Shown: one piece after another, positions 38 through 41,149 of the stretch | How the letters are laid out: every line of letters begins with the position of its first letter | How positions within the stretch are numbered: the first letter of the stretch is position 1 | Sequence record: NZ_CP044066.1 | Reading direction: 5' to 3' (one strand) | Length of the DNA stretch: 64,000 nucleotides | From: a plasmid | Notes under the pieces: model-generated | The model's input: the letters and a program-made list of their open reading frames with translations, nothing else | Told to the model about the DNA's origin: nothing | Databases searched by the model: none | Position numbers and translations under genes: made by a program

Positions 38-572
38 ATGCACGGACAGGGATTGGTGACCATGAGCATGCGAGAGATAGACCGCATGAAGGTGATCCAG
101 GCGGTGGCAGACGGCCATTTGGCACGCTGGTGTGCGGCCGAGAAGCTCAGTATCAGTCGCCGCCCGGTCGAGCGGTTGGCGCAGCGATATCGACAGGACG
201 GTCCACGCGGCCTCTTGTCCCGTAAATGGGGGCAAGCCGGCCACCGTCAGTTGGCTCCCCGGGCTGGCGTCACGTGCACGGGGCTTGACCCGCGACCGCT
301 ACGCGGAATTTGGCCCGGCGCTGGCCGCTGAGATCCTGTGCGAGCGTCATGCTAAGGTGAGAGCAACAGAAAGGGAACGGCTGCACCCCACATGCCGGAA
401 GTCGACACCTTATGCGGCAGCGGATCGTCCCAGTATTCCGGACGCCGGCACAGGGTGCAGAAGTGAGCACGGGGTATTCGTTCTCTCCCATTTGATCGTC
501 ATAGTTGCCGCCCTGTGTCTACAGCGTGGACATTGCGGTGGGGCTATCTTTTCTGAAGGTGAGCGACCGTAG
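38..572 (+). pseudogene. Transposase N-terminal fragment (ISNCY-like), frameshifted and 3'-truncated
   Basis: ORF 38-331 contains 'MSMREIDRMKVIQAVADGHLARWCAAEKLSISRRPVERLAQRYRQDGPRGL', typical of the helix-turn-helix N-terminus of ISNCY/IS1202-type transposases. The continuation 'RDRYAEFGPALAAEILCERH' is in a different frame (ORF 132-572). The 3' end is cut off by the end of the 544-4647 gene. Confidence 0.45.
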
Positions 573-3500
573 TCAACAACGCATCGAGACCAATTGGCTT
601 GGATAGATGCGCATCAAAGCCTGCGCGTAAAGCTGCATCGACATCAGCTTGACGATCGAAGCCGCTTATGGCAATGGCATAGATTCCGGCCAGTTTAGGC
701 CGGCTACGCACAGCTCGCAGCAACTCGTAGCCATCCATGCCGGGCATCCCAAGATCCGATAACAAAAGATGCGGTGGCGCGCTCTCCATCTGATCCAGCG
801 CTCGCTCTGCGTTAGTCGCTACGTCGACAGTCGCTCCAATTGACTCGAGCAGCAGTCTAAAGGTCTCCACGGTCAATGCATCGTCATCGACCAAAAACAC
901 ACGCATGCCCTGGAGGACTGCAGTCGGCACTGCTGAGACATGAGCTCCCGTCTCTTGCGTTGAAACAGATGGCAGCTCGACGGTGAAGGTTGCGCCCTGG
1001 CCGATGCCCGCCGACTCGGCATGCACGGTACCATTCTGCAATTCAACCAACTCCTTCACCAACGATAGACCGATGCCGAGCCCACCGCTGCGACCGGCCG
1101 AGAATCCTCCCTGGCGGAACAAGTCAAAGATGTAGGGCAACGTCTGCGCGTCAATGCCCGTGCCCGTATTGCGGACCACCAGACGAAGCTGTGCACCAAT
1201 CCGACTCAAAACGACGTCGATGGCACCACCTTCCTCGGTAAATTTGATTGCGTTGCTGAGCAAGTTCCAAACGATCTGCTCGATACGCGTCAGATCTGCT
1301 CGTACCCACAGCGGCTCCTTACCAATGTCGCAGACCAGGGTCACGCCTCGATCATTTGCGTCTTGCGTAACCGCGTCGCACACGCGTTTCACCACGCTCC
1401 TCAGATCGATTGTCTCTCGGACAATCGATAACTTGCCTGTTCGAATGCGCGACATATCCAGCAAGTCGTCGATAATTTTGGCCTGACCGATGATCGTCTG
1501 TCTGATGGTGTTCGTTGCGCGCTCGATGACAGGATTGCGCTGTGCCTCAGGCGAGCGCGCAATCAACTCATTGCTGGCGCTAATCAGGTTTAGGGGATGC
1601 TTGAGTTCATGCGAGACAATGGCCAAGAACTCGTCACGGCGGAACTGCCCCTGCTGCCATTTGTCTTCATCCGCACGTGGCGCACCGGCGGGCAGCACCT
1701 CGTCCAGGTCGCGGGCGATCTTGGCAAAGCCTATGACGCCACCAGTGTCCAGACGGGACAAGACCCCACTGGAGCGAAAACGCTTGCCGTCCTTGCGCAG
1801 GTGCCAGCGCTCTTCTTCCACACGCCCATATTTGCGAGCCTGTGCCATCTCTTCGTCGGGGACGCCGCGCTCGCGATCTTCCGGCGTAAAGAGGGTGCTC
1901 GCGAGATTACCGAGCATTTCGCTTTCCGAGTATCCGAAGATTCTTTCCGCGCCTCGATTCCAGCTTGTTATGCGACCATCATCATCAAACGTAATGATGG
2001 CGTAATCGCGCGTGCTTTCGGCAACGATGTTCATACGATGCTCGCCTTCACGCGCCCGCTCTTCTGCGGCACGACGTGAGGTGATATCGATGAACGAGAG
2101 CACCGCGCCATCGATGCGGTCCTCTGTGGTTCGATATGGCAAGAATCGCGCGAGGTACCACCGCCCGTCGATACTGCGCAGCTCGCGCTCGATCAATCTC
2201 AGTGAGTCAAAGGCTTCGGCAGCGTCGTCGGCAAGCTTGTCGTACTCCAGACGGTGCGTGATGTCGAGCAGCGATCGGCCGATATCCGAGGGGATAATGC
2301 TAAAGACATCAGTGGCCCGTGGCGTGTAGCGCTTGATTCGGATGTTGCGGTCTACGAATATCGTACCGATGTCGTTCGCCGTAATTAGGTTTTGCAGGTC
2401 GTCGTTGATCTTGCTTGTTTCCTCGACCTTCGACTTCAGTTCCGCATTGACAGTGGTCAGTTCCTCATTGATGGACTGGAGCTCTTCTTTGCTCGTCTCA
2501 AGCTCTTCACTGGCCGAACGTAGCTCCTCGTTGATTGCCTGCAGCTCTTCGTTCGATGCCTTCAGTTCCTCCGTGGATGTCTCGGACTGTTCGATGGTTG
2601 CCTGTAGCTGCTCCTTCGTTCGTTGCAGCTCACGTTCGAGCTGACTCACGATCGGGTCCCGAGACACCACCTCCGAGACTTCACCGTCGGCACTCATGCT
2701 GTTTTCCACTTCGTCGAAGAGTACCAAAATGAAGTCCGCGCCGGATTCGGCGTCGTGCACAGGCCGCGCGATCATGTTGACAAAAAATCGGCGGCCGTCT
2801 CGCGCAAGCTCCACGCGGCGAGCCTCGACGCTGTGATTCGATTGCAATGCCTGGAAGATCGCAGTGCGCAGCTCCAAGCGCAACTCTGGCCTCACGGCAG
2901 CAATAATATTGTGCGAAGGAACGCCGCCGGCATATTGGAGAAAGCGACCGGCCCGATCCGATAGATGGACGATATCGGAGTCGCGGCTAAGCAAGACGCT
3001 CGGCGGCGCGTGTTGCTCCACGAGTCGTTGGTGAAGGTCGCCAAACGAAAACTTACGCTTGCCTGTGGGAGGCTGTAGAGTCATGGGCATTCGTGCGTTG
3101 GCCAAACCGACAGACGATAGCGGCACCGGAGAATCCGTTCTCACGGCAACATTGGCGCGGTAAATCCGCGCCTTCTTGTCAACCAATGTGAAAAGATCGC
3201 CTGCGCCGTCTGCAGTCTCCGAGCTGCCGAGAAATAAGAATCCGCCTTGCCGCAGCGCGAAGTGAAACGTACGGAGAATCTCGAGCTGCGCGTCGCGGTC
3301 CAGGTAAATTAGAAGGTTCCGGCAGCACACCATGTCCAGCCGCGAGAACGGTGGATCGCTAAGGACATTGTGGATAGCGAACAAGACATTGGCACGAAGC
3401 TCTTTCTTCACGCGATAGTGGACTGCCTCCTTGGTCAAAAATTGGCGCGACCTGCGACTGTCCACATCTGCAAGAATTGAATCAGGGTAGAGGCCGAGCC

Positions 3501-4647
3501 GTGCCGTCGCGATCGCACGTTCGTCGATGTCCGTTGCGAAAACCTGAAACGCGACGCCATCTACTGCGCGCTCAGCCGCCTCCTGAAGCGCCATCGCGAT
3601 CGAGTACGCTTCCTCGCCCGTTGCACAGCCAGCGGACCAAACTCGGATCGGCTCGTTGGCGCTCCGATTGTCCAGTAGCTGTGGAATGACAGTTGTCTGC
3701 AGCACATCGAAAGCATCCCGATCACGGAAGAAATTAGTGACGCTGATCAGCATGTCCTGCAGCAGTAACGGGGTCTCGTCCGGATGCTCGTGCAGATAGT
3801 CCCGATATTCGCGTAGATCGGTCAAGCCACTGACTTGCAGCCTTCTCTCGATACGACGAAGAATTGTTGCCCGTTTGTACTGGCGGAAGTCGTGCGAAGT
3901 ACGCGCTCGCAGAATTGCCATGATCTCGCGCAATATGCGTTCGGTATACTCCGCGGCCACCGCATGACTTTTGTTGGGTTCCGCCGCGCTAGGTATCTGA
4001 ATGCGGCTGGCGGTCACCCAGAGATCCATCAATCGCTGTGGCATCTCCGGCACCGACAACACTAGGTCGACCATGCCAGTGGTGATAGCAGCGCGCGGCA
4101 TGCTAGGGAACTCCGCCTCCTCTGGCCGCTGCGCAATGGTGATACCACCAAGTTCCTTGATGCGCGTCAAACCGACCGATCCGTCCGAGCCTGCGCCCGA
4201 CAAGACGATGGAAATGGCACGTTCACGATGTGCTTCCGCCAGTGAGCGAAAGAAAAGGTCAATCGCCGCACGTCGGTCATCTGGTGATTCTGCCGGCTGC
4301 ACTCGCAGACAGCCATCGACCATGGTCAGGAGCACCGATGGCGATATCACGTACACGTGATTGGCTTCAATTAGATTGGCATCCGCAACCTGAACTACGG
4401 GCATATCCGTCGCACTGCGCAACAGGTCGGGAAGCGTGCTATTGTGGTCGGGAGACAAATGCAGCACGATCACGTACGCGGCGCCGGAGCGCGCCGGCAG
4501 AGCTTCAAAGAAAGCTTTCAGCACTTCAATGCCGCCGGCCGAAGCACCTATGCCAACCACCGGAAAATTGAGTTGGCTTGGAGTTGGCACAGGCGGAGTT
4601 CGGACCATAGCTTGATTTAAGTTGGGTGGTGGAGCTTTGGCCACCAT
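544..4647 (-). CDS. CheB methylesterase / CheR methyltransferase / PAS / histidine kinase / receiver hybrid sensor protein
   Basis: 1367 aa. The N-terminus has a CheB-type 'VVGIGASAGG' nucleophile motif. The CheR SAM motif 'VWSAGCATGEEAYSIAMAL' follows. Then comes a heptad 'EELxxxN' coiled coil and a PAS region. The HisKA box is 'SHELKHPLN'. The HATPase has 'NLLSNAIKF...GLGIGLSLV'. The C-terminal receiver reads 'VFLVDDD...DLGMPGMDGYELLR'. An SD-like 'ggag' lies upstream of the ATG at 4647. Confidence 0.9.
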   Translation of the reverse strand: MVAKAPPPNLNQAMVRTPPVPTPSQLNFPVVGIGASAGGIEVLKAFFEALPARSGAAYVIVLHLSPDHNSTLPDLLRSATDMPVVQVADANLIEANHVYVISPSVLLTMVDGCLRVQPAESPDDRRAAIDLFFRSLAEAHRERAISIVLSGAGSDGSVGLTRIKELGGITIAQRPEEAEFPSMPRAAITTGMVDLVLSVPEMPQRLMDLWVTASRIQIPSAAEPNKSHAVAAEYTERILREIMAILRARTSHDFRQYKRATILRRIERRLQVSGLTDLREYRDYLHEHPDETPLLLQDMLISVTNFFRDRDAFDVLQTTVIPQLLDNRSANEPIRVWSAGCATGEEAYSIAMALQEAAERAVDGVAFQVFATDIDERAIATARLGLYPDSILADVDSRRSRQFLTKEAVHYRVKKELRANVLFAIHNVLSDPPFSRLDMVCCRNLLIYLDRDAQLEILRTFHFALRQGGFLFLGSSETADGAGDLFTLVDKKARIYRANVAVRTDSPVPLSSVGLANARMPMTLQPPTGKRKFSFGDLHQRLVEQHAPPSVLLSRDSDIVHLSDRAGRFLQYAGGVPSHNIIAAVRPELRLELRTAIFQALQSNHSVEARRVELARDGRRFFVNMIARPVHDAESGADFILVLFDEVENSMSADGEVSEVVSRDPIVSQLERELQRTKEQLQATIEQSETSTEELKASNEELQAINEELRSASEELETSKEELQSINEELTTVNAELKSKVEETSKINDDLQNLITANDIGTIFVDRNIRIKRYTPRATDVFSIIPSDIGRSLLDITHRLEYDKLADDAAEAFDSLRLIERELRSIDGRWYLARFLPYRTTEDRIDGAVLSFIDITSRRAAEERAREGEHRMNIVAESTRDYAIITFDDDGRITSWNRGAERIFGYSESEMLGNLASTLFTPEDRERGVPDEEMAQARKYGRVEEERWHLRKDGKRFRSSGVLSRLDTGGVIGFAKIARDLDEVLPAGAPRADEDKWQQGQFRRDEFLAIVSHELKHPLNLISASNELIARSPEAQRNPVIERATNTIRQTIIGQAKIIDDLLDMSRIRTGKLSIVRETIDLRSVVKRVCDAVTQDANDRGVTLVCDIGKEPLWVRADLTRIEQIVWNLLSNAIKFTEEGGAIDVVLSRIGAQLRLVVRNTGTGIDAQTLPYIFDLFRQGGFSAGRSGGLGIGLSLVKELVELQNGTVHAESAGIGQGATFTVELPSVSTQETGAHVSAVPTAVLQGMRVFLVDDDALTVETFRLLLESIGATVDVATNAERALDQMESAPPHLLLSDLGMPGMDGYELLRAVRSRPKLAGIYAIAISGFDRQADVDAALRAGFDAHLSKPIGLDALLTTVAHLQKR
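2400..2600 (-). repeat. Intragenic 21-nt (7-aa) tandem repeat array encoding EELKASN/EELQAIN/EELRSAS/EELETSK/EELQSIN/EELTTVN
   Basis: The reverse complement of 2455-2590 translates to 'ETSTEELKASNEELQAINEELRSASEELETSKEELQSINEEL', extending to 'TTVNAELKSKVEE' at 2400-2460. The periodic 'gagctcttc' is visible on the + strand. Confidence 0.85.
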
Positions 4648-5643: not shown

Positions 5644-5711
5644 CCGGGCTTGGCCGGGGGCAATCGCCGCATTCGTAGCACGCTCGCGATCGGCTTATTC
5701 AAGAGAGAGCG

Positions 5712-8705
5712 ATGACGCCATCCAGCACGGTGCATTCCAAAAGTATCTTTCCTCCCATTGTTGCAATCGGTGCCGCAGCTGGTGGGGTCGTTGCCTTGCA
5801 AAAAGTGTTCCGAAGGCTACCCAAAGGCATGCCGTTTGCAATCGTCGTGCTTCAGGACCTCACTGAAGGATACTCACAACGCCTGGCGGGCTTAATATCG
5901 AGTTGGACGAATCTCCCCGTACATGAAGCCGACACCCATTTAGTGCCGAAGATCGGCGAGGTGTATTTACCTTCCCCCGGCCGTGTGCTTACCATCGACG
6001 CACGTTCGCTACGCGCGAGCAAGATCGAAGGTGATCGCCTTGTTAGCGCTAGCGTGAACATGATCGACCGCTTTCTGGAAGGCCTTGCGCAACATCATGG
6101 AAGCCGGGCAGTCGCGGTCATTTTGTCGGGAAAAGGAATGGACGGCGCGGCCGGTGCCTTGTGCATTCGTAATGCCGGCGGGATTGTGATCGTACAGGAT
6201 CCACTGACAGCGTTGCACGATAGCATGCCTAACGCGGTGATACGGCGCGGCCTTCATGATCACATACTGCCACCCGGCGCGATCGGCTCACAAATCCTAG
6301 CGTGTGGCTCCAATAGCTATTCCCGCCCGCGGAATGCTGAAGGGACGGAGCAGATGGACAACAGGGTGTTGGCTCGCATCCTTCTACTAGTCCGCGTGCA
6401 TTCTGGTATCGATTTCACGGGATACAAGACGGCCCCGCTGCTCTGGCGCGTCAAGCAGCGCATGGATCGGCGACATGTGCGAGAGATTGCGGACTACGCA
6501 AGCCTGATCTCGGAAGACCCGGTGGAACTGGAGTCCCTTATCCGCGATATTCCATTACACGTGACCGAATTCTTTCGCGATCCGGGGGCATGGGCAGCAC
6601 TCAAGGAGGAGGTTCTCCTCCCTCTTATGCGGACAGCGGACGCACATAATCCGGTGCGTACATGGACGGCCGGTTGCGCTAGCGGCGAGGAGGCATACTC
6701 GCTTGCGATGACGCTTGAGGATATCAAGCAGGAGATCGATTCTTCTGCGTGTTATCAGAGTTTCGTCACGGATGCTTCTCCCGAGATCGTGCATCGCGCT
6801 CGCTGCGGCGTGTTTGCTCCATCCGACATGGCGACCGTGTCGCAGCGACAACGGACGGAGTATTTCTTTAGTGCAGACAAGATGTTCACTGTCAGAGGTT
6901 TTTTGCGCGAGCAGATGGTTTTCTCCTCTCAGAATCTCATCTCTGACCCTCCATTCGCGAACATGGATCTTGTCACTTGCCGAAACCTACTGATATACCT
7001 AGAGCCCTCCACTGCGAGGCAGATAATCTATATTTTGCACAGTGCGCTGCGCGAAGGGGGCTATCTGTTTCTCGGCGGCAGCGAATCTTATGACCTGGAG
7101 CAAAGCGGCTTTTCAAAAGTGTCCGGGAGGTTCAACATCTTCCGGAAAACCGGGATCGTTCTGGCGCGAGCCAACGCGGAGCATGCGGCCAGTCAACAAC
7201 GTCGCAATATATCAACTTTGAATGCTGGCTTACTTCGTCAGGCCAACGAGGATTTTGTCTTTCCCTCAGTGCTTGTTGACGATCACGGGCGGCTGCTACG
7301 TGTGTATGGGGCCGCCGGTGACATCCTTCGAATACCCGCCGGAGAACCCACAAATACTCTATTGTCGCTACTACCATGGCAATGGGTGGACCCTCTGCGT
7401 CGCGCCATGTGTGAGGCGTTAGCACAAGATCAGCAGCGGATCGTACGGGATCTATATGATCGGGTGGATTTGCGCATCAGAGTGATACCCATACGTGTCA
7501 GCGCCGAGAATCCTCCCAGTCGTATGCTTCTCTCGTTCATGAGCGAGGAGAGCGGTCAATTTACCCTGGTTCCGAGTGTCCCCCTTTCGGAAAGCGTTGA
7601 CCAGCACCGTAGCGGGGTTCGCCGCTGCGCGGGACCGCCTGAGAAAATCCAATCGTCGTCTCATCAGGAATACGACGCTTTACGCGAGAGGCTGCTGGCA
7701 GTCAATGAGGAATTGCTCGCTTCCAATATTTTACTGAACACGAGCAACGATAATCTTCACGGCGCCAACGCCGAACTCCACGAGAAGATTGCGCAGCTGG
7801 AGATTCGTGCGGAAGTACTTTCATCCGGGGAGGTCATGACTATCTTCCTTGACAAGGACCGGAGGGTTCGCTGGTTCACCCCTGCCACCACGAGACTATT
7901 TCCGTTAAAACCGGAGGACGTGGGGCGAGACATCCATGACCTCGTTCCGCGGTTTCGCGATCCGTCGTTCTTGTCCGACATCCAAGAGGTCTTGCGTTCC
8001 TCCGAAATCAAGGATGCCATAGTGCACGGGGACGACGACAGATGGTATCGGCGGCGATTGGTCCCACACGAGGCAGCGATCGGAACCATAGATGGTGTAG
8101 CGGTAACCTTCGAGGACTTCACGACGCGTCGGCACGTCGAAAATGCGCTATGGGCGAGCGAAGATATGCATCGACACAGTCAGATGTGCCTGTCTTCGCA
8201 GAAAGCGGCACTGCAGTTGGCGATGAATGGGGCCCCACTGACAGAGTCGCTTGAGATCCTGCGACATACGATGACCGGAGAGTCAGGCGATAGACGATCC
8301 GCAGCGTTCTATGTAATGCGAGAGTCGAGGCTGCATCACTTGAAGGGAATGCCAGATGCATACGCTCGGTATCTGAATGGCGCTGATGAGACGCTGGAGT
8401 CGGCCTCCTGCAAGTTCGCCCTGGCGACGAACCAAACCGTCACCACATGCGACATCCTTCGCGATGAGCGTTGGAAACCGTGGGCTTTGGTTAGTTCCAG
8501 CTTCGGATATCGCGGTTGTTGGTCGTTTCCCATCCGAACCGGGAGCAGCCAGCTTGTTGGCGCTTTGGTTGTGTACTTCGGTGTCGCTCAAACTCCGGAG
8601 CCTGTTGACCTCCAATTGGCCGCCGCTATGATACACACCGCTGCGATTATCATTTCGCGAAAGGTTGGCGTCGATGTATTCGTAGCGAATGGCTCTCACG
8701 TATAA
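5712..8705 (+). CDS. CheB-like (Ser to Ala) / CheR / coiled coil / PAS / GAF signalling protein, with no kinase core
   Basis: 997 aa. The N-terminal motif is 'PIVAIGAAAGG', a CheB-type motif with Ala in place of the nucleophile Ser. The CheR motif 'VRTWTAGCASGEEAYSLAMTL' is intact. A degenerate 'NEELLASN...NDNL...NAEL' coiled coil, a PAS region and a C-terminal GAF-like region follow. There is no HisKA/HATPase or receiver. ATG at 5712 with a purine-rich upstream. Confidence 0.85.
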   Translation: MTPSSTVHSKSIFPPIVAIGAAAGGVVALQKVFRRLPKGMPFAIVVLQDLTEGYSQRLAGLISSWTNLPVHEADTHLVPKIGEVYLPSPGRVLTIDARSLRASKIEGDRLVSASVNMIDRFLEGLAQHHGSRAVAVILSGKGMDGAAGALCIRNAGGIVIVQDPLTALHDSMPNAVIRRGLHDHILPPGAIGSQILACGSNSYSRPRNAEGTEQMDNRVLARILLLVRVHSGIDFTGYKTAPLLWRVKQRMDRRHVREIADYASLISEDPVELESLIRDIPLHVTEFFRDPGAWAALKEEVLLPLMRTADAHNPVRTWTAGCASGEEAYSLAMTLEDIKQEIDSSACYQSFVTDASPEIVHRARCGVFAPSDMATVSQRQRTEYFFSADKMFTVRGFLREQMVFSSQNLISDPPFANMDLVTCRNLLIYLEPSTARQIIYILHSALREGGYLFLGGSESYDLEQSGFSKVSGRFNIFRKTGIVLARANAEHAASQQRRNISTLNAGLLRQANEDFVFPSVLVDDHGRLLRVYGAAGDILRIPAGEPTNTLLSLLPWQWVDPLRRAMCEALAQDQQRIVRDLYDRVDLRIRVIPIRVSAENPPSRMLLSFMSEESGQFTLVPSVPLSESVDQHRSGVRRCAGPPEKIQSSSHQEYDALRERLLAVNEELLASNILLNTSNDNLHGANAELHEKIAQLEIRAEVLSSGEVMTIFLDKDRRVRWFTPATTRLFPLKPEDVGRDIHDLVPRFRDPSFLSDIQEVLRSSEIKDAIVHGDDDRWYRRRLVPHEAAIGTIDGVAVTFEDFTTRRHVENALWASEDMHRHSQMCLSSQKAALQLAMNGAPLTESLEILRHTMTGESGDRRSAAFYVMRESRLHHLKGMPDAYARYLNGADETLESASCKFALATNQTVTTCDILRDERWKPWALVSSSFGYRGCWSFPIRTGSSQLVGALVVYFGVAQTPEPVDLQLAAAMIHTAAIIISRKVGVDVFVANGSHV

Positions 8706-9143: not shown

Positions 9144-9785
9144 TCAACGGCTAGAAACCAAGCTCCCTGCTTCTTGCTTGATGCACAGACCCAGCCGATC
9201 GGCGAGACGCACCAGCTCGGGCAAAGAGTCGAGCTCGAGCTTTTGCATCACACGTGCACGATGGACCTTAATCGTCTTCTCCACCGTACCAAGCTCGCTA
9301 GCCACCTGTTTGTTACGGATGCCGGTCACTACCCATGTCAGTACCTCGAACTCTCGAGGTGTCAGCCTCTGAATCTTCATTTGCAGCTCCTGCAATTCCC
9401 GTTGTTCTTCGAAGTGTTCTGCGGCCTGGGCGCAACCCTTCTTCACTGCAGCAAGTAGTTGCGTCTCTGACACCGGTTTTTCGAGGAACGCTATGGCACC
9501 CGCTTGCATTGCTCGGACCGCCTGTGCAACGTCGGCATATCCGCTCAGAAAGATTACGGGAATCTTGCCTTCAAGACTCTGCTGGAGTACGAGTCCGTCT
9601 GTACCCGGCATCAGCAGGTCCAGCACCAAGCATGAGGGCTCGGGTCCAAGCTTCACTTCATCAAGGAAAGACTGTGCCGATGAGAACATACTTACCAGAT
9701 AACCATGAGCGGCGAGCATGCGGCTTAGCGCTCGCCTCACGCTGCCATCATCATCGACGATATAAACGGTTGCTTTTGCAAACAT
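9144..9785 (-). CDS. FixJ/LuxR-family response regulator (REC + LuxR HTH)
   Basis: 'MFAKATVYIVDDDGSVRRAL...LLMPGTDGL' is a receiver domain. 'LTPREFEVLTWVVTGIRNKQVASELGTVEKTIKVHRARVMQKL' is a LuxR-type HTH. ATG at 9785 is preceded by GGAG. The 9144-10121 ORF in the track is an unsupported N-terminal extension. Confidence 0.9.
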   Translation of the reverse strand: MFAKATVYIVDDDGSVRRALSRMLAAHGYLVSMFSSAQSFLDEVKLGPEPSCLVLDLLMPGTDGLVLQQSLEGKIPVIFLSGYADVAQAVRAMQAGAIAFLEKPVSETQLLAAVKKGCAQAAEHFEEQRELQELQMKIQRLTPREFEVLTWVVTGIRNKQVASELGTVEKTIKVHRARVMQKLELDSLPELVRLADRLGLCIKQEAGSLVSSR

Positions 9786-9832
9786 ACGTTGTCTCCAGGG
9801 AAGATTTGCAAAATGGGAGCCTGCGCCGTGTC

Positions 9833-10672
9833 CTAAGAGCCCATGACGACGTGAGTTCTCTCTTGCAGTAGTTCGAATTCGAATGTCATGCCCCGTCCGC
9901 TGTTGCAGTTGGCCTTGAGACGCCCGCCATTTCGCTCCATAAGTGCCCGACTGAGCGATAACCCCAAGCCCATACCCCTGGGCTTCGAGAAGTAGAAGGG
10001 TCGAAAAATCCTCGAGAGATCGTCTTTGGCTACACCGCACCCGTTGTCTTGAACGGCAATGCACAACGTGCCATCGCCCGCTTTGACCCGTATGACTATG
10101 GAGCGATCGTCGGTCGAGCATCCATTGGTCACAGCATCAAGCGCGTTGGCCAGCAAGTTCAGGAGCACCAAGCGAATTTCCACCGGGTCTCCCATCGCGC
10201 GCGGTAGTGGCTCTGCAAGATCGCGCTGAATCACGACGCAGCGCGATCTCGCATTCGCGCCCGCAAGTTCCACCGCTTGATCAGTCATATCGCCTACGCT
10301 GAATGGCCGCATGTGCGGCGCTTCCCCAAGGACGAGCGCCCGAACGGCGCGCACGATATCGCTTGCCCGCGACGCGTCGTCTACGATATCGTCCAGAATC
10401 TCACGTAGCAACTTCTGTTCGAGCATGTTCGACGCCAGCAACTCGCGCGCGGCGTGCGCGTTGCTCGTTATAGCCGTGAGCGGCTGGCTCAGTTCATGAG
10501 CCAGCGCACCCGCCAGTGTGGTCAGTCCAGTCCGTTGCGACGCATCTTCCGGCAGGCCTTCTGATTCCCGCGGGATCCGCGCTTGTTCGCCGCTACTTCG
10601 AAATGCCAGGGAGCAAGCACGGATGCCAATACCGACGCTTATGCATAGCATCGATACTGCTAAGGGATGCAT
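9833..10672 (-). CDS. Sensor histidine kinase (FixL/NtrB-like HisKA + HATPase) with a short membrane N-terminus
   Basis: H-box 'LAHELSQPLTAITSNAHAA'. ATP-lid motifs 'LLNLLANALDAV', 'DNGCGV', 'GMGLGLSLS'. Hydrophobic N-terminus 'MHPLAVSMLCISVGIGI'. GAGGAG RBS before the ATG at 10672. It lies 48 bp upstream of the regulator gene. Confidence 0.85.
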   Translation of the reverse strand: MHPLAVSMLCISVGIGIRACSLAFRSSGEQARIPRESEGLPEDASQRTGLTTLAGALAHELSQPLTAITSNAHAARELLASNMLEQKLLREILDDIVDDASRASDIVRAVRALVLGEAPHMRPFSVGDMTDQAVELAGANARSRCVVIQRDLAEPLPRAMGDPVEIRLVLLNLLANALDAVTNGCSTDDRSIVIRVKAGDGTLCIAVQDNGCGVAKDDLSRIFRPFYFSKPRGMGLGLSLSRALMERNGGRLKANCNSGRGMTFEFELLQERTHVVMGS

Positions 10673-12352: not shown

Positions 12353-14920
12353 TCAGTCGCGAGTATTTGGGTTTCCGCTGGCGCAGGTGTTAGCCAAACG
12401 TGGGTAAGCCTCGGGCGATGTGGGTACGCCGCAGCCGAGTTCATGAAATAGCCCGGTTGGCCCGGCGGAGCCCATGCTGTGCGCCAACGCGAACGCATCG
12501 TCGGGATGTTGCGGCCGGCCGAGCAGATAACCCTGCCCCTCGTCGTATCCTTCTTCGCGCACTACCGCTAGTTGCTCGGGAGTTTCGATTCCTTCAGCAG
12601 TAGTGCGCACACGGAATGCAGCGCCGAGACTGCGCACAGCGTGAAGAATGGCGCGCGCCTCGGTGCTGGTCGCCAGGTCCGATACAAAGGATCGGTCAAG
12701 CTTGATCTTATCGAAAGGAAAGCTGCGCAAGTAGCTTAGCGAAGAATAACCGGTGCCAAAATCATCCATCGCAACGCGCGCGCCCAAGCCGCGCAGATCG
12801 CGGAGCAATTCAAGATTCTCTCGGTCATTTCGCAGCAACACAGATTCGGTAATTTCCAGTTCGAGCCTCGAGACGTCTACGCCCGCATGGTCCACGGCGC
12901 GGCGCACGGCGTCGACTAACTCGCGCCCTCTGAACTGAAGCGGCGAGAGATTAACACCAACACTAATCCCCGATGGCCAACGGGCCAGTTGTCGGCACGC
13001 TTCGCTTAGCACCCAATTTCCAATCGGAACAATCAGACCCGTCTCTTCCGCCAACGGGATGAAATCGGCGGGCGACACAAGGCCATCAGTCGGATGTCGC
13101 CATCGCAGCAGAGCCTCGAAGCTGCGTAGCTGGCCTGAGCGCAGATCATAGATCGGCTGATAGTGAAGCTCGAGTTGCCCAGCCGCAAGCGCGTGATGCA
13201 GGGCACGTTTGCGTTCGAGCCGCTGCTTGGTCCGATCGCCTTGATCGGCTGAGAAGAAACGGTAGATACCTGGCCCTTCTGCCTTGGCTTGATAAAGCGC
13301 CATGTCCGCAGCCTGCAGTAGCTCATCAGCATTGCGCCCATCATTGGGAAAAAGCGCTATTCCGATGCAACCACCCAGTCTCACTGGCGCCTTGTTCAGC
13401 TCGAACGGGCGTGAGAGCTGCTCGACCAAACGCCGCGCCAGGCCTTCCACTGCGTATCGGTCAACGACCTGCTCTTGGATTACAACAAACTCATCCCCCC
13501 CGATGCGAGCCACCGCGTCAGCATCGGCCACGCATTCGAGCAGCCGACTAGCTACCTGCTGGAGCACGACATCGCCGGCATAATGGCCAAACGCATCGTT
13601 GACGCCTTTGAAGCCGTCCAGATCAATGTACAGCAGCGCGGCGAGCGTATCCGTTCCTGCCGCAGTGATAGTCTGCTCAATGCGTTCGCGCCAAAGCAGA
13701 CGATTAGCGATACCGGTCAGGGGATCATGGCGCGCCGTGTGCGCGAGTGCTTCTTGGTTAGCAAGCAACTGGTGCTCAGCATTCTTACGCTGGGAGATAT
13801 CGCGAAAAAACACTGAGAGGCCGTCGGCAGTCGGATACACATGGACTTCATACCAGGCCTGAAGTATTTTCATGTGATGCTCAAACACGATCGGTCTCTG
13901 AGTAGTGACGGCAGTCCGATAATGTTCCGCGAAGACTCCATCTCGCTCTTCCGGGAAAATGTCCCACACCACGCGCCCGATGGCGGGGTTGCGCCCCGCC
14001 ATCGCGCGTAACGCATTGCCATTGAAGTAGGTCAGGCGTAAGGAGTGGTCGAGTTGCACCACGCTATCGGTCGTACTCTCGAGTACGGCCGACAAGCGGC
14101 TAGCAAGCGCCTCGATCGCCATGGTCGCCGACTTGCGCTCGTCGACGTCTTCGAGTGTGCCATACCAGCGGATGACGTTCCCACAGTCGTCAGTCCGAGC
14201 GGCTGCACGCGCGCGGTGCCAGCGGTAAGTGTCATCCCACAGCTTTACACGATATTCCAGATCCACCGCTTGCTGCGTGGCAACGGCCTCGGCCCACGCT
14301 TCGCGCACGCGTGGCAGATCGTCCGGATGCACGCAACGCGTCCACCCGTCACCCAATGCATCATCCACGGGCATGCCTGTGAGCTCGGTCCAGCGCGGAC
14401 CGGCCTCAGTAATCCATCCCGTGGGATCGGCGGTCCAGGGGATCTCTGGGCTCAATTCGACCGCAGATCGATAGTGCGCCTCGCTCTCCAAGAGTGCCTG
14501 CTCGATGCGGTGTTTATCAGTGATGTCAGTGATCCAGACAAGCAACAAAGGCTCGTCCGAACCTTGCACCCATATCGGGCGCTTGCGGGTACGGAGAACC
14601 CGAGCGTCGCAGCCCGGCATCTGAAATACTTCCGTCGTCTCTCGGTACTCGCCGCGATCGAATACTTGGTCGTGGATAGCCCGGTACTCCGCTGCCCGCT
14701 CTGCAGTAAAAAGCTCGTTGTCTGTACGTCCAATTAGCTCCTGAGCGGGTCGCTGCATGAGTTGACACATCGCCGGGTTCACGAACAACCAGACGCTGCG
14801 CCGGTTCTTCAGCAGCAGAGGCTCCGGAAATTGGCGCCATATTTCCTCGAGGGTCCCGGTTGGTAATGGTGGGCATTCGGGCCTCAGGTCTTCTTTCAGC
14901 TCTGGCAACGATCCCCCCAT
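12353..14920 (-). CDS. PAS/PAC-GGDEF-EAL c-di-GMP turnover protein
   Basis: 855 aa. Multiple PAS-like segments. GGDEF motif in 'RIGGDEFVVI'. EAL domain with 'EALLRWRHP' and 'DDFGTGYSSLSYL'. Confidence 0.9.
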   Translation of the reverse strand: MGGSLPELKEDLRPECPPLPTGTLEEIWRQFPEPLLLKNRRSVWLFVNPAMCQLMQRPAQELIGRTDNELFTAERAAEYRAIHDQVFDRGEYRETTEVFQMPGCDARVLRTRKRPIWVQGSDEPLLLVWITDITDKHRIEQALLESEAHYRSAVELSPEIPWTADPTGWITEAGPRWTELTGMPVDDALGDGWTRCVHPDDLPRVREAWAEAVATQQAVDLEYRVKLWDDTYRWHRARAAARTDDCGNVIRWYGTLEDVDERKSATMAIEALASRLSAVLESTTDSVVQLDHSLRLTYFNGNALRAMAGRNPAIGRVVWDIFPEERDGVFAEHYRTAVTTQRPIVFEHHMKILQAWYEVHVYPTADGLSVFFRDISQRKNAEHQLLANQEALAHTARHDPLTGIANRLLWRERIEQTITAAGTDTLAALLYIDLDGFKGVNDAFGHYAGDVVLQQVASRLLECVADADAVARIGGDEFVVIQEQVVDRYAVEGLARRLVEQLSRPFELNKAPVRLGGCIGIALFPNDGRNADELLQAADMALYQAKAEGPGIYRFFSADQGDRTKQRLERKRALHHALAAGQLELHYQPIYDLRSGQLRSFEALLRWRHPTDGLVSPADFIPLAEETGLIVPIGNWVLSEACRQLARWPSGISVGVNLSPLQFRGRELVDAVRRAVDHAGVDVSRLELEITESVLLRNDRENLELLRDLRGLGARVAMDDFGTGYSSLSYLRSFPFDKIKLDRSFVSDLATSTEARAILHAVRSLGAAFRVRTTAEGIETPEQLAVVREEGYDEGQGYLLGRPQHPDDAFALAHSMGSAGPTGLFHELGCGVPTSPEAYPRLANTCASGNPNTRD

Positions 14921-22129: not shown

Positions 22130-22834
22130 TTAGCTGCCGGGGAGCAGTCGTTCGAATTCCCGCTTCACCACGGCATAGCATTCGCAGACGCGCTCTTCCA
22201 ACCCCGCACGGTCAAGAATGGCGATGTGACCATGACTGTAGCGGATCAAGCCTGCAGCCTGTAGCTTCAGCGCAGCCTCAGTCACTCCCGATCGTCGCAC
22301 GCCAAGCATGTTTGCGATGAGTTCCTGAGTCATCGTCAGATCGTTTGTCGGCAACCGGTCCAGACTCAAAAGCAGCCATCGGCAGAGTTGCTGGTCGATG
22401 GAATGATGGCGATTGCAAACTGCTGTCTGTGCCATCTGCGTGATGAGTGCCTGGGTGTACCGCAACAAGAGTTGCTGCATCGGCCCCCCGCGCTGGAACT
22501 CCTGCCTCAATATCATGGCGCCCATGCGGTATGCATGCCCCGCGCTCTGCACGACTGCACGGCTTGGCGTCGTTTCCCCGCCCATGAAGATGGCAATACC
22601 AACGATTCCTTCGTTGCCGACAATTGCGATCTCCGCCGACGCTCCATCCTCCATTACGTACAACAGCGAAATGATCGAGTCGACCGGGAAGTAGACCGAT
22701 CGTAGCTGGTCCCCCGATTCGTACACAACGTGACCCAATGGGAGTTCCACCAACTCCACATGTGGGTAAAGACGCGCCTTATCAGCTGCCGGGAGCATGG
22801 CAAGTAAGCGATTGGACATCGGGGTGATCGCCAT
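22130..22834 (-). CDS. Crp/Fnr-family transcriptional regulator
   Basis: cNMP-binding-like barrel ('VELPLGHVVYESGDQLRSVYFPVDSIISL'). C-terminal HTH ('MTQELIANMLGVRRSGVTEAALKLQAAGLI'). Confidence 0.85.
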   Translation of the reverse strand: MAITPMSNRLLAMLPAADKARLYPHVELVELPLGHVVYESGDQLRSVYFPVDSIISLLYVMEDGASAEIAIVGNEGIVGIAIFMGGETTPSRAVVQSAGHAYRMGAMILRQEFQRGGPMQQLLLRYTQALITQMAQTAVCNRHHSIDQQLCRWLLLSLDRLPTNDLTMTQELIANMLGVRRSGVTEAALKLQAAGLIRYSHGHIAILDRAGLEERVCECYAVVKREFERLLPGS

Positions 22835-23093
22835 AGCTGTCTCTTCTTGGGAGTACCGAGATTGGTCGGGACAGCCCTTCTGAGGACAAAAATTCTCGAT
22901 ACTTCCAATCCAACTATAGGCAGTCGCCGACTTGAGACAAGTGCCCACAAAGCTTCCCTAACCTGCCCTTGACTTGCCGTATCACAACCCCTATAACATC
23001 CATATGGACGGTATGAGGATGGCTGTGGGATGGCATCTGACGGTATGTGAATAAAAATCCTCCCTTCGAGATTCGACAGCGGCACAGAGAAAA

Positions 23094-24699: not shown

Positions 24700-27600
24700 C
24701 TATTGACGACCGCGGCTGATCAATGCGTTTAGCTTTTGATAATCCGCGGGTTTGACCATGTAGTGGTCGATTGCGCCCTGCCTGTGGTGTCCGGTCGCAG
24801 GAAGGCCATAGCCGCTCAGTGCAACCACGAGCACGCTGGTTTGTTCCGGCATTTCGCGGATCCGGCGCGCCACTTCATAGCCGTCCATATCAGGCAGACC
24901 AATATCGAGCAAGATCACTTCCGGACGGAACTCTTCTACCGACGCAAGAGCCGCAGTTCCATCGGCGGCAACACGTACCTCGTGCCCATCCAGGAGCAAA
25001 AGAGCGGCCGCGCTCTGCGCGGCATCATTGTTATCATCCACCAGCAATATTCGGCGACTCGTAGGTTCGCTCGCTGGCTCAACGGGATTCGAATGGCGAT
25101 CGGCCAATGTTCCGTGGGGCAACACAGGTAATCGTACGACAAACGTGCTGCCTTGGTTCAGCCCTGGGCTCGTCGCATGGACGGTGCCACCGTGCAGTTC
25201 AACTAGCTTGCGCACCAGCGCGAGTCCGAGCCCCAAGCCCGACTGTCTCCGATCCGCAGGCGAGTCCGCCTGTACGAAAATGTCAAAAATCGGTGAAAGA
25301 AGCTCTTTCTTCATTCCGATACCGTCATCGGTCAGCGTGATAACCGCCTCATCGCCCTGGCGCTCCAGCGTGAGGGCAATATGGCCGCCATCTGGGGTGT
25401 ACTTGATGGCGTTTGCCAGCAGATTGCTAACAATCTGCTCGAGCCGTAGAGGATCTCCTTTGACAATCAGCGAGCCCGGCGGCAGCCTAAGGGTCAGCTC
25501 ATGCCGTTGCAGATCCGCAAGCGGACGAAGGGTCTGGATTGCGTGTCGCACAGGTTCCGCTAGATCTATCTGGACAGACCTAACGACGATCACGCCGCGG
25601 GTGATTCGCGAGACATCGAGAAGGTCGTCGACGAGGCCGATCTCGTGGTCCAGTTGTCGCTGCACCGATTCTTGCACCTGCCGAACGGTCACGGCGTCGG
25701 CGGTACCGCGCTGCCAGACAAGTAGCCCGCTGCGAATTGCGGCAAGTGGATTGCGCAACTCGTGTCCAAGCATAGCCAGGAATTCATCTTTCTGACGATC
25801 GGCTTCTTGCAGCCGGGCAAAATCCGCTCGCTGCCTGGTGACATCTTCAATCGTCAGGAGAACCGAGCCCTGCCCTGACCAGTCCAACCTGCGCGCATTT
25901 AGTCGCATGGTGCGCAGGCCGATTCGCGGGAAAGCGTGAACGATCTCGTAATCGCGAACCGCGGAATGTCGGGGAAGTACATTCTCGAGCAGTTCGCGTA
26001 GCGCCGGAATATCCCACTGGCCGTTACCCAGTGCGTATAGCCGGGAGCCCGCAGTGCTCTCAACAGTCGTGGCGAACATCTGGTAGAAAGCCGCGTTGGC
26101 TCGCTTTACGCGAAGGCCCCCATCGAGCACGAGGATCGGCTGTGCCGTCGTCTCGATGATACCCTCCGCAAAGTCTCTGGCCCCGGCGACATCGGTGTGC
26201 AGATCCTTGAGCTCTCGCACCCGATAGCGCAGTTCCTCATTGGTGGTCGAGAGTTCTTCATTGATCGACTGGAGCTCTTCCTTCGCCGTCTCCAGCTCCT
26301 CGTTCGTGCTGCGGAACTCCTCGTTGCTAGATAGCAGTTCTTCCTCGCTGGACTTGAGTTCCTCGCGGGCGCTCTCGTGCTCTTCCAGCGCCGCTCTGAG
26401 ACGCTCACGGGTTGCGGCAAGCTCGCTTGTCAGCCGGGCGATCTCCTCATCTTTGCCCCCGCGGGTACGGGCGTATTGCGGCCCAACACGCTGCTGCAGT
26501 AACTGTAGGATCAACGCCCTGAGAGGTGCATCTGCAAATCCTCTTTGCGTGACCGGAGGGTAGATGTGTCCCTCGAAAAAGACCAGGAACCAGCGCGAAT
26601 CAGTGCCCGATAGCTTTACGGGACGCACTTCAATGCTGGCCGCACAGTCGCTGCCAGCAAGATTGGCCCGCAATCCTGTCCGACGAGCCGGCGCACCGCT
26701 CTGGCGTACTCTATTGATCGCTTCCGTAACGGCCAGAAAAATCTCCGGCCTAGCGAGTTTTTGAAGGTTCATGCTCGGAGGACCTTCCGGATTAGATAGC
26801 CACCCACTTGTATCGCCGCGAAACATAAGGATATTGAGGTCGCTATCGCATACCACACCGGGGGGCGCGTAGCGACCGAGAGCCTGCCGGTCGGCCTCTG
26901 TGCGGAGTTGCGTTTCCTGCGTTTGTTCACGAGTGGAAGTTCCATGTCGATTTGCTCCGCCATGGGGTCGGGCTGCGATTGTGTCCGGCAACGACGGCTG
27001 AATAGTAGGTCGTGGTTTTCGGATGTAGACCTTGGAACTAGCGTCTTCCAGAACGCCAAAGTACTCGGAGAACGCTCCGACAGTTTCGGAAGGGCCGAGC
27101 ATCAAGACGCCTTCAGTGCGCAACGCATAATGAAAGAGAGGCAGCACGCGAGCTTGTAGCACCGGATCGAGGTAGATCAGCAGGTTCCTGCAACTCACCA
27201 GGCTCATGCGCGAAAACGGGGGATCCTCGGCGACGTTGTGACGCGCAAAGGTACACATGTCCCGTAAGGACTTGTCGATGCGGAAGTATTCGCCTTCGCG
27301 CACGAAATAGCGGCTCAGGCGCTCGGCCGAGACGTTGCGCGCAATATTTTCTATGTAGCGTCCGGTGCGAGCGGCTTCCAGCGCCTCAAGGCTGACGTCC
27401 GTGCCGAATATTTGTACTGAGGCTTCCGAAAGTTGGGGCCCAAGATACTCCGCCAGGCAAATGGCAAGCGAATAGACCTCTTCCCCGCTCGCGCATCCCG
27501 GCACCCAGATTCGAATGGGCCGGTTTGCGCCTGTCTCGCGGAGAATGCGGGGCAAAACGGTGTGTACCAGGGTGTCGAATGTCTTCGGGTCCCGAAAGAA

Positions 27601-28467
27601 CTCGGTTACGCGGACGAGTAGATCACGACCCAGCGCCAGCGCCTCGGCTGTATCCTCTTCAAGGACTGCACGATAGTCGGCTAGCGATGTCAATTGGCGC
27701 AAAGCCATACGACGCGCGAGTCTGCGCTCGACAGTACCGCGCTTGTAATGGGTGAAGTCGATCGTGCAGGCCGATCGTAAGAGCCAGAATATGCGCCGGA
27801 GGGCGGGGCCTCCCGAATCGGCTTCTAGGCTTGTACAAACATCATCTCCAACCCGCCGGATCGGGAGGGCTGTGATACGTCCGATCTCCGCCGCGATCTC
27901 TTGCGGCTTCATAACGAAGTCGACGCAACCAGTGGCAATGGCCGCCCGCGGCATGCTGGAGAATTTAGCGGATTCCTCGTCCTGCGCAAACGTAATTCCG
28001 CCCTCCCGCTGCAGCGCACGCAGGCCCAACGCGCCGTCCGAGCCTCCACCCGAAAGCACGACGCCGATGGCGTTCTGACCTTCATGCGCCGCCAGCGAGT
28101 CGAACAGATCGTCGATTGGCATCGGAGGGCCCAGCGTGTTGCCACCCGGCTCGAGGTGAATCTTCCAGCCATTCACGAACATTCGGGCGTTGGGCGGAAT
28201 TACGTAGACGCGATTGATCCCTAACTGCATTCCGTCAACCGCTTCGACCACCTCCATTTCCGTTCGCGTGGCCAGAATTCCGGGCAGCAAACTCTCGTGG
28301 GACGGGTCAAGATGCTGAACGATCAGGAACGCCGCACCAGTGTCGCCAGGAAGCGCGCCAAAAAAGTCGGACAGCGCCTCTAGTCCGCCAGCTGATGCGC
28401 CAATACCAACGAGCGGAATCGAGGAAGGCGTCGGTTCTGCAGAATCCGCGGACAGGCTAGTCGCCAT
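24700..28467 (-). CDS. CheB methylesterase / CheR methyltransferase / PAS / histidine kinase / receiver hybrid sensor protein (paralog of 544-4647)
   Basis: CheB motif 'PLVGIGASAGG'. CheR motif 'IRIWVPGCASGEEVYSLAICL'. A heptad EEL array and a PAS region. HisKA 'GHELRNPLAAIR'. HATPase 'NLLANAIKYT...GLGLGLALV'. C-terminal receiver 'RILLVDDNND...DIGLPDMDGYEV'. The ATG at 28467 ('MATSLSADS') is preceded by GAGGA. The track ORF extends to 28521. Confidence 0.9.
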   Translation of the reverse strand: MATSLSADSAEPTPSSIPLVGIGASAGGLEALSDFFGALPGDTGAAFLIVQHLDPSHESLLPGILATRTEMEVVEAVDGMQLGINRVYVIPPNARMFVNGWKIHLEPGGNTLGPPMPIDDLFDSLAAHEGQNAIGVVLSGGGSDGALGLRALQREGGITFAQDEESAKFSSMPRAAIATGCVDFVMKPQEIAAEIGRITALPIRRVGDDVCTSLEADSGGPALRRIFWLLRSACTIDFTHYKRGTVERRLARRMALRQLTSLADYRAVLEEDTAEALALGRDLLVRVTEFFRDPKTFDTLVHTVLPRILRETGANRPIRIWVPGCASGEEVYSLAICLAEYLGPQLSEASVQIFGTDVSLEALEAARTGRYIENIARNVSAERLSRYFVREGEYFRIDKSLRDMCTFARHNVAEDPPFSRMSLVSCRNLLIYLDPVLQARVLPLFHYALRTEGVLMLGPSETVGAFSEYFGVLEDASSKVYIRKPRPTIQPSLPDTIAARPHGGANRHGTSTREQTQETQLRTEADRQALGRYAPPGVVCDSDLNILMFRGDTSGWLSNPEGPPSMNLQKLARPEIFLAVTEAINRVRQSGAPARRTGLRANLAGSDCAASIEVRPVKLSGTDSRWFLVFFEGHIYPPVTQRGFADAPLRALILQLLQQRVGPQYARTRGGKDEEIARLTSELAATRERLRAALEEHESAREELKSSEEELLSSNEEFRSTNEELETAKEELQSINEELSTTNEELRYRVRELKDLHTDVAGARDFAEGIIETTAQPILVLDGGLRVKRANAAFYQMFATTVESTAGSRLYALGNGQWDIPALRELLENVLPRHSAVRDYEIVHAFPRIGLRTMRLNARRLDWSGQGSVLLTIEDVTRQRADFARLQEADRQKDEFLAMLGHELRNPLAAIRSGLLVWQRGTADAVTVRQVQESVQRQLDHEIGLVDDLLDVSRITRGVIVVRSVQIDLAEPVRHAIQTLRPLADLQRHELTLRLPPGSLIVKGDPLRLEQIVSNLLANAIKYTPDGGHIALTLERQGDEAVITLTDDGIGMKKELLSPIFDIFVQADSPADRRQSGLGLGLALVRKLVELHGGTVHATSPGLNQGSTFVVRLPVLPHGTLADRHSNPVEPASEPTSRRILLVDDNNDAAQSAAALLLLDGHEVRVAADGTAALASVEEFRPEVILLDIGLPDMDGYEVARRIREMPEQTSVLVVALSGYGLPATGHHRQGAIDHYMVKPADYQKLNALISRGRQ
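26225..26400 (-). repeat. Intragenic 21-nt (7-aa) tandem repeat array encoding EELKSSE/EELLSSN/EEFRSTN/EELETAK/EELQSIN/EELSTTN
   Basis: The reverse complement translates to 'REELKSSEEELLSSNEEFRSTNEELETAKEELQSINEELSTTNEEL'. The + strand shows periodic 'gagctcttc/ctcctcgtt' units. Confidence 0.85.
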
Positions 28468-28785
28468 GAGTGTCCTCTGTGCCAGTACGATACCCACGCC
28501 ACCAATCACGTCTCGCCGCACTAAGGTCTTCCCTGATCATACGCCTCGGTTGTGGGCGCTGCCCCTGAGCTCCTCCCATTACTGCAAATTTGTACCCAAT
28601 TCGGCGACGCAATGTGCAATATCGAAAGACGAAAGTCGGCAAGCTCTGCGAGGTGGTCGCCTATGCGACGCTTATTGAGGGTTTCGACGCGGTTGGGATC
28701 ACCTTTCGAAAGCATGGCTGGCGGGCACGATGATTGCGCTTCAGTGAATGCCTTGCGTTTCGCAGGGCGATCACAGAGGTTCACA

Positions 28786-37442: not shown

Positions 37443-37634
37443 GTCGGTTTGTCGGACATGGCATCGGCAAAGGATGCGCTATCCGGGCATGAGTCCCCCG
37501 AATCCGCCCGAGGTGCGAGTACGCTCTGGTACGACTATTGCGGGACAGATAGCGGCAAGCAAGCGGGAGTCTCAGTCGTGAGGGTGGCAGTGCCGAGGCT
37601 TCCTGCGGTAGTTCAGTGGCTAGGAGATGATGTC

Positions 37635-37895: not shown

Positions 37896-38014
37896 AGCGT
37901 CGGCGGTGTAGCGAAACCGCAGACGCGAAAGGCTCTGCCCGTGTGAGCCAATCGACGAACGCAGAACGTTGAACTCGCTAGCTATAACGACGCCAGCACG
38001 AAGCCGGGGCGGTG

Positions 38015-41096: not shown

Positions 41097-41149
41097 GAGA
41101 GCTCCAGTACGGTCGTCGCTTTCGAAAATTTGATGGCGTCCGCCATCAG

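Follow-up and report, generated by a model that had tools for sequence, protein, structure and literature searches.

Is a CheB-CheR fusion that has lost its esterase nucleophile a gene in decay, or has it been maintained for a different function? The question is raised by the open reading frame (ORF) at 5712..8705 (+) of a 64,000-nucleotide stretch of plasmid DNA (sequence record NZ_CP044066.1), the whole of which we refer to as the window. This gene encodes a protein of 997 amino acids and lies between two longer genes for CheB-CheR hybrid histidine kinases, at 544..4647 (-) and 24700..28521 (-). A sequence-only reading had described it as a decayed duplicate of these flanking paralogs, with an inactivated CheB part, no kinase core, a degenerate array of Glu-Glu-Leu heptads and a C-terminal GAF domain, and had offered a regulatory or decoy subunit or a pure methyltransferase as possible outcomes. 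We find the inactivation to be real and the decay to be unsupported. The gene is probably a functional, selectively maintained member of a subfamily without a kinase, encoding a PAS- and GAF-regulated glutamate methyltransferase with a non-catalytic CheB-like domain.

We identified replacements at two of the three catalytic positions of the CheB-like domain. The catalytic residues of CheB are Ser164, His190 and Asp286 (PMC3180692). Codons 20-25 of the gene (GGT GCC GCA GCT GGT GGG) encode GAAAGG, and the corresponding motif is GASAGG in both other CheB-CheR fusions of the window, so the motif difference first noticed in the sequence is confirmed by the codons and by alignment. Alignment to the Salmonella CheB structures 1a2o and 1chd places Ala22 (GCA, 5775..5777) on the nucleophile Ser164. 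It also places Asp49 (GAC, 5856..5858, in the context VLQDL) on the general base His190, which lies in TQHM in CheB and in VLHL and VQHL in the paralogs; this second replacement had been missed by the sequence-only reading. The equivalent of Asp286, Asp144 (6141..6143), is kept, which leaves one triad residue out of three. With Ala in place of the nucleophile Ser and Asp in place of the general-base His, the esterase part is predicted to be catalytically dead, and the description of the domain as a pseudo-enzyme holds on more grounds than were originally given.

The fold of the domain appears to be retained. Residues 16-198 (5757..6305) match the Pfam family CheB_methylest over its full length (model positions 1-174 of 174), and the AlphaFold2 model assigns them a predicted local distance difference test score (pLDDT) of 83-93. 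A Foldseek search with the N-terminal domain matched Thermotoga maritima CheB (3sft) with a template modelling (TM) score of 0.89 and a root-mean-square deviation (rmsd) of 2.2 Å. Canonical CheB of Salmonella and E. coli (1a2o, 1chd) and of T. maritima thus shares with this domain the catalytic fold (TM 0.83-0.89), the position of the G-x-S-x-G-type elbow and the Asp286 equivalent. The 997-amino-acid protein differs from canonical CheB in lacking the N-terminal receiver, in the changes at Ser164 (to Ala) and His190 (to Asp), and in the fusion to CheR and sensor domains.

The Ser to Ala substitution is real, fixed and rare. Every full-length member of two clusters with 61% mutual identity has it (10 members in total): GAAAGG is found in five variants that are 98-99% identical (from C. 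pauculus, C. plantarum records and metagenome contigs) and in five full-length members of the sister cluster, including a C. pampae protein. The same protein sequence was recovered on contigs from four independent sequencing runs, in addition to the deposited C. pauculus plasmid protein, so the concern that the alanine codon might be a sequencing error can be set aside. Codon 49 is polymorphic, being GAC (Asp) in the window and in contig L093 and CAC (His) in L094, which is 98.6% identical. Since this variation is found among alleles that are 98-99% identical, the second triad loss must be very recent.

Outside the clade of the window protein, each of the 98 CheB domains in the loci that were fetched has both Ser and His. 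This census drew on an alignment-based contig scan in which most of the matches listed were distant family members (about 30% identical), and which we used for the triad and not for synteny. Among 137 representatives of clusters formed at 50% identity, Ser is present in 135, being absent only in P0180 (with Ala and Pro at the Ser and His positions) and P0108 (Ala and His), and His is present in 136 once a one-residue misalignment in P0138, which had given the appearance of a His loss, is mended. Two independent lineages carry related changes. The metagenomic protein P0043 (1000 amino acids) carries Asp in place of His, within QDLT as in the window protein, and retains Ser and all three Glu-Glu pairs. 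P0180 (1097 amino acids), with Ala for Ser and Pro for His, has a complete Glu-Glu array. We also observed Asn, His or Glu at the Asp286-equivalent position in about one quarter of CheB-CheR fusions that are intact in other respects (15 of 98 loci; 37 of 137 representatives; for example P0107 and P0113-P0120, and L012, L014, L016 and L025-L028).

The methyltransferase part of the protein shows no comparable loss. The CheR module (CheR_N plus the S-adenosylmethionine (SAM)-binding domain, residues 211-480; 6342..7151) carries FFRD at residues 287-290, GCASGEEAY at 321-329, TD at 353-354 and CRNLLIYL at 423-430, all four of which agree with the family consensus in a table of 120 homologues. In sequence the module matches the PDB entries 5ftw and 1af7, and Foldseek aligns it to Salmonella CheR (1af7) with a TM score of 0.80. 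The two-domain fold and the SAM-binding motifs are thus shared with canonical CheR (1af7, 1bc5, 5ftw), from which the protein differs in that the module is embedded in a multidomain sensor protein. We predict that the 997-amino-acid protein has CheR glutamate methyltransferase activity, and the suggestion that it might be a pure methyltransferase fits both the intact motifs and the strong constraint on this module described below.

The remaining layout places the protein in a distinct subfamily. The order is CheB-like, CheR, PAS-like, coiled coil, PAS_10 and GAF. Pfam assigns CheB_methylest to residues 17-195 (E = 1.2e-42), CheR_N to 220-270 (1.8e-08), CheR to 284-472 (1.2e-44), PAS_10 to 702-804 (7815..8123) and GAF_2 to 865-981, and detects no HisKA, HATPase_c or Response_reg domain at E <= 0.01, confirming the absence of kinase core and receiver. 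AlphaFold2, run with 34 homologues (mean pLDDT 78), adds a PAS-like domain at 516-612 (7257..7547), a disordered linker at 614-650, a continuous helix at 644-704 (7641..7823), and a second helix at 804-838 leading to the GAF domain at 843-993 (8238..8690). The PAS-like alpha/beta domain is confidently predicted by the model and found family-wide, and a PPSVL... block is present in all three window paralogs, yet no Pfam family matches it even at E = 1. Solved structures include no sequence relative of the GAF domain, and Foldseek matches of the PAS-GAF part to phytochromes, with an rmsd of about 19 Å, show merely that the domain types agree.

The closest relatives form dozens of clusters of CheB-CheR-PAS_10-GAF proteins of about 975-1000 amino acids from Cupriavidus, Paraburkholderia, Caballeronia and metagenomes, which are 40-50% identical to the window protein over 97-99% of its length. 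In these proteins, as in GAF-terminated CheB/CheR fusions (K13924) generally, CheB_methylest is followed directly by CheR_N and CheR, and then by the coil, PAS_10 and GAF, with no kinase and a length of about 1000 residues. The window protein has both features and is colinear with 33 subfamily members. Members of this CheB-CheR-PAS-GAF subfamily never carry a kinase core, and because the whole subfamily has them, the lack of a kinase and the terminal GAF domain represent a normal architecture and not decay. The stop codon lies where it does in the homologues (975-1000 amino acids, query coverage 97-99%), leaving no missed kinase continuation. The proposal that PAS and GAF domains had replaced the kinase part is correct for GAF, which stands in place of the PAS-HisKA-HATPase-REC portion of the kinases; it does not extend to the PAS_10 domain, which follows the coil in the left paralog as well.

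Comparison with the two hybrid histidine kinases of the window (544..4647 and 24700..28521) leads to the same placement. In common with the 997-amino-acid protein they have a CheB-CheR module at the N terminus, a heptad coil with a PAS domain after it, and a conserved Asn/Leu coil core. Features of their own are the HisKA-HATPase-REC portion, an intact Ser/His/Asp triad and six to nine Glu-Glu pairs, where the 997-amino-acid protein ends in GAF. It is only 28-29% identical to each of them. To judge by this comparison, the kinases and the 997-amino-acid protein are ancient paralogues, not recent duplicates, and the idea of a decayed copy of the flanking genes gives way to that of a separate subfamily that is naturally without a kinase.

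Within this subfamily the triad is normally intact, nearly every one of the 120 best matches having GASAGG, QH and DG. Subfamily members such as Cupriavidus plantarum P0003, C. oxalaticus P0007 and Paraburkholderia P0013 are colinear with the window copy from end to end at 45-50% identity and share its domain order, length (975-1000 amino acids), coil heptad register, CheR motifs and placement of PAS_10 and GAF. The window copy differs from them in the Ser to Ala and His to Asp changes, in the loss of two of three Glu-Glu pairs, and in the number of otherwise conserved positions that have changed in the CheB and GAF domains. A neighbour-joining tree groups the sequences as (P0003,(P0002,P0001)), where P0001 is the cluster of the window protein. 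P0003, encoded on the C. plantarum chromosome, has an intact triad and has already lost the first two Glu-Glu pairs. These Glu-Glu losses are common to P0001, P0002 and P0003, and Ser to Ala is common to P0001 and P0002. Taken with the polymorphic His/Asp codon, the tree and the shared losses show the apparent order of events: first two Glu-Glu pairs, then the nucleophile (Ser to Ala), and lastly the general base (His to Asp).

The coil itself explains what had been read as a degenerate array. In 31 core members the subfamily helix reads S-R-E-E-L-E-A-S-R-E-E-L-Q-A-L-N-E-E-L-K-A-S-N-E-Q-L..., with Glu-Glu at heptad positions b and c of three successive heptads in 29-31 of the 31 members, then Ala-Ser, and with Arg or Asn at position a and Leu at position d essentially invariant. 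The heptad region of the window copy reads ...LRERLLAVNEELLASNILLNTSNDNLHGANAELHEKIAQLE, in agreement with the earlier transcription. Its three pair positions are Q652-E653, E659-R660 and E666-E667, so that the three-pair arrangement of the subfamily is reduced to a single pair, and the two lost sites read Q-E-Y-D-A-L and E-R-L-L-A-V. The a/d core is fully kept (Asn665/672/679/686 and Leu661/668/675/682/689/696). Counted per protein, there are six to nine pairs in the kinase paralogues, three in the subfamily and one in the window copy. The 'degenerate array' is thus in part a subfamily trait (three pairs and not seven) and in part a lineage-specific loss (from three to one), on a helix scaffold that is untouched.

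In sequence, this helix has some likeness to the adaptation region of methyl-accepting chemotaxis proteins (MCPs). Glu-Glu pairs recur at heptad spacing along the subfamily coil, with Ala-Ser after them, and the consensus of this coil contains three sequence matches to the published consensus for such sites (PMC1079850). One exact match is left in the window copy, E666-E667-L-L-A-S (E666-S671; 7707..7724), which we regard as a candidate methylation site. Replacement of the first Glu by Gln at one site was reported to lower the rate about 35-fold (PMC1079850). The fusion protein differs from MCPs in having no MCP signaling domain, and methylation of its coil is a prediction from sequence.

The gene shows the marks of purifying selection. 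Ratios of nonsynonymous to synonymous substitution rates (dN/dS), calculated by the Nei-Gojobori method, are 0.32 for the window gene against L093, 0.25 against L094, and 0.16 between the sister-cluster alleles L005 and L095; for the adjacent long kinase, window against L093, the value is 0.20. Together with a full-length reading frame and a confidently predicted CheB fold, these values speak against a decaying gene. CheR has the lowest dN/dS of all domains in the cluster of the window protein (0.08-0.15). The CheB domain has values of 0.43-0.59 there (five or six nonsynonymous against three or four synonymous changes), and the value for the sister cluster's Ser-less CheB domain is 0.05 (two nonsynonymous against 14 synonymous changes). 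Mean identity ratios to the subfamily core are 0.84 for CheB, 0.84 for CheR, 0.72 for the coil and 0.71 for GAF. A preferential decay of CheB is unsupported by mean identity, the ratio of CheB to CheR identity between P0001 and P0002 lying at the 11.5th percentile of control pairs.

Among the measures tested, only the number of changes at conserved columns sets the window copy apart from the triad-intact P0003. We scored 245 columns, each conserved in at least 29 of the 31 core members. In CheB, 10 of 50 such columns are changed in the window copy, six of 50 in P0002 and two of 50 in P0003 (Fisher's exact test, window against P0003, p = 0.028); in GAF the counts are 14, 11 and one of 45 (p = 0.0003); and in CheR they are 11, 10 and 13 of 83 (p = 0.83). 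The coiled coil has seven, eight and six of 26 columns changed, and PAS_10, the best-conserved part of the window copy, has none, one and five of 23. The changed CheB columns include a loop with R112, G114 and D116, and the changed GAF columns include the LACGLAVATGxPVIT motif. In the Ser-less clade, CheB and GAF have been remodelled and CheR, PAS_10 and the coil core conserved, in a gene that is under purifying selection and is not a pseudogene.

Given these analyses, we propose that the protein would act as a PAS/GAF-regulated glutamate methyltransferase unable to reverse its own modification, in which the CheB-like domain may be kept as a structural or substrate-binding, non-hydrolytic module. 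The best lead to a substrate would be the coil itself. An enzyme that only writes, modifying its own last site (E666-E667) or, in trans, the array of the neighboring kinase, appears the most likely arrangement, because the subfamily coil fits the pattern of PMC1079850, the window copy keeps one match, and the neighbor has seven pairs and an esterase. That neighbor, encoded at 544..4647 (-), is a full-length CheB-CheR-PAS_10-PAS-HisKA-HATPase-REC hybrid kinase of 1367 amino acids with an intact triad, according to Pfam and the motif table. It is possibly a partner of the 997-amino-acid protein and, with its intact esterase, would in that case be the pair's sole source of esterase activity. A wider and more tentative idea, which we consider somewhat unlikely, is that CheB/CheR fusions are self-adapting cytoplasmic sensors, combining receptor-like adaptation sites, methyltransferase and methylesterase in one chain, and that the clade of the window protein is a natural dissection of this circuit, having given up the sites before the esterase and kept a methyltransferase that would only write, in trans, to the array of the neighboring kinase.

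Several observations weigh against this proposal. Loss of Glu-Glu pairs is not consistently tied to loss of the triad in independent lineages, as P0180 and P0043 keep their arrays and P0108 is without one. Pairing with a long kinase was found in only two of nine genomic contexts of GAF-type genes, and the gene of the sister Ser-less cluster lies between an integrase and a resolvase without an adjoining CheB-CheR kinase. The contrast between CheB and CheR substitution is not significant when synonymous and nonsynonymous changes are pooled (Fisher p = 1), with five to 19 changed codons per domain. The GAF domain is heavily remodelled too, and the functional change may therefore exceed loss of the esterase. 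Lastly, we found no experimental work on any CheB/CheR fusion in the literature searched, which yielded only mentions in KEGG tables and unrelated papers.

The same evidence can be read differently. The protein may be a wholly non-enzymatic regulatory or decoy subunit, which heterodimerizes through its coil with full-length CheB-CheR kinases and modulates them, its CheR activity being irrelevant. The invariance of the coil a/d core in the face of lost surface Glu-Glu pairs would suit such a role, as would the divergent pairing with a long kinase that is conserved in two genera and the presence of two more CheB-CheR kinases within the same 64 kb. We nevertheless think it unlikely. Intact CheR motifs, and a CheR module among the most constrained parts of the protein (dN/dS 0.08-0.15 and 0.09), are unexpected if catalysis does not matter; the isolated sister-cluster gene has no adjoining kinase paralogue to pair with; and the window coil differs from that of the left kinase at most surface positions.

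Less likely again is a variant of the methyltransferase proposal in which the CheB-like domain has become a non-hydrolytic 'reader' of methylated or amidated Glu sites, shielding them from esterases or tethering the methyltransferase. In serine hydrolases, changing Ser to Ala is the classical way to trap a substrate. The modelled preservation of the fold, predicted with high confidence, agrees with such a role, and so does the strong purifying selection on the Ser-less domain of the sister cluster, with its two nonsynonymous and 14 synonymous changes. The 10 of 50 changed CheB columns, including the R112/G114/D116 loop, look more like loosening than the upkeep of a binding site, however, and the CheB dN/dS of 0.43-0.59 in the cluster of the window protein, although based on small counts, points the same way.

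We consider it very improbable that the domain is still a hydrolase or deamidase acting by a non-canonical mechanism. Asp144 is retained, and the variation of the acid position in about one quarter of otherwise intact members indicates that the family tolerates some change in the active site, but here nucleophile and general base are both gone, the GAAAGG elbow offers no other Ser or Cys, and among several hundred relatives Ser and His hardly vary. A decaying pseudogene, or a Ser to Ala change due to sequencing or assembly error, has least in its favor and is refuted by the data: two catalytic residues are lost and substitutions at conserved positions are elevated in CheB, coil and GAF, but the ORF runs without interruption and in colinear order with its homologues, independent runs agree on its sequence, Ala22 is fixed in both of the clusters that share 61% identity, and dN/dS values (0.16-0.32) and confidently predicted folds are those of a maintained gene.

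The proposed methyltransferase with a non-catalytic CheB-like domain is a variant within a large and already annotated family. At E <= 1e-30 the 997-amino-acid protein matches 9129 representatives of 50%-identity clusters, and CheB/CheR fusions are covered by K13924, within which this esterase-dead, Glu-Glu-depleted clade falls. The clade provides a natural separation-of-function allele for probing what CheB/CheR fusions methylate. It also calls for caution in annotation, as database names such as 'chemotaxis protein CheB' or 'protein-glutamate methylesterase', the kind of label attached to the sister-cluster protein, are wrong for this clade. The practical reach of these observations is modest, since they concern one clade, from a C. 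pauculus plasmid and C. plantarum and C. pampae records.

The gene is complete, as judged from the ORF list, its translation, the Pfam matches and identity to P0001, and is preceded directly 5' of its ATG by a GAGAG-type ribosome-binding site. Its product is 100% identical to the Cupriavidus pauculus plasmid protein QET03933.1 (WP_150373998.1). A megablast of the gene against a plasmid collection and a scan of genome contigs with the single protein returned no match, and counts from a scan for promoters and terminators were within the range of shuffled sequence.

The gene and that of the 1367-amino-acid kinase are divergent, with 1064 bp between them. A divergent pair recurs in Paraburkholderia (L009/L010), where a 1359-amino-acid kinase accompanies a 984-amino-acid GAF-type protein. 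Between Paraburkholderia and the window the kinases are 66% identical and the GAF-type proteins just 45%, and no conserved sequence was detected in the intergenic region when the window was compared with L009. In the long kinase (window residues ~669-850; L009 3216-7295, -), the Glu-Glu coil and PAS_10 are almost 100% identical despite the 66% overall, indicating unusually strong local constraint. Other contexts among the nine are diverse: the GAF-type gene is divergent from a HisKA-HATPase-REC kinase in L096, and follows a kinase-REC-REC run in L091, a GGDEF gene in L092 and an MCP gene in L097, the rest being metabolic or mobile. The annotated large ORFs of the window include no gene for a chemoreceptor, CheA or CheW.

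Downstream and on the opposite strand, the window encodes a REC-GerE response regulator (9144-9785, -), a 279-amino-acid HisKA-HATPase kinase with no recognizable sensor domain (9833-10672, -), a Ysc84 protein and a PAS-GGDEF-EAL protein. The first two, a convergent pair (9144-10672), may possibly serve as output partners of the 997-amino-acid protein in a split sensor-kinase arrangement. Conservation of the response regulator, short kinase and Ysc84 genes alongside the gene is limited to the near-identical C. plantarum contig L093.

The sister locus (C. pampae-type, L005 1-13977) is colinear with window positions 37210-46671, sharing genes for an AI-2E transporter, a transglutaminase, NhaA, a KaiC-like ATPase, a REC protein, HU, an integrase and a resolvase. 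Colinearity is broken by a 3.9-kb segment of L005 between integrase and resolvase, which holds a helix-turn-helix gene and the gene for the Ser-less CheB-CheR-GAF protein and maps to window positions 5711-8656. At the syntenic site of the window (~45781-45878) there is no insertion. Because the L005 segment maps elsewhere in the window, the gene has evidently relocated between sites. An rve-type integrase ORF at 53586-54647 (-), probably part of an insertion sequence, and the integrase and resolvase at 44.9-46.8 kb suggest that this region of the plasmid is mosaic and mobile.

The third CheB-CheR gene (24700..28521, -), whose product carries HisKA, HATPase and REC domains according to Pfam, is divergent from a manganese catalase gene at 28552-29664 (+). 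The island also encodes a PAS-GGDEF-EAL protein (12353-14920, -), a Crp-family regulator (22130-22948, -) and a KaiC-like ATPase (42704-44212, +), making up a dense set of stress and signaling genes.

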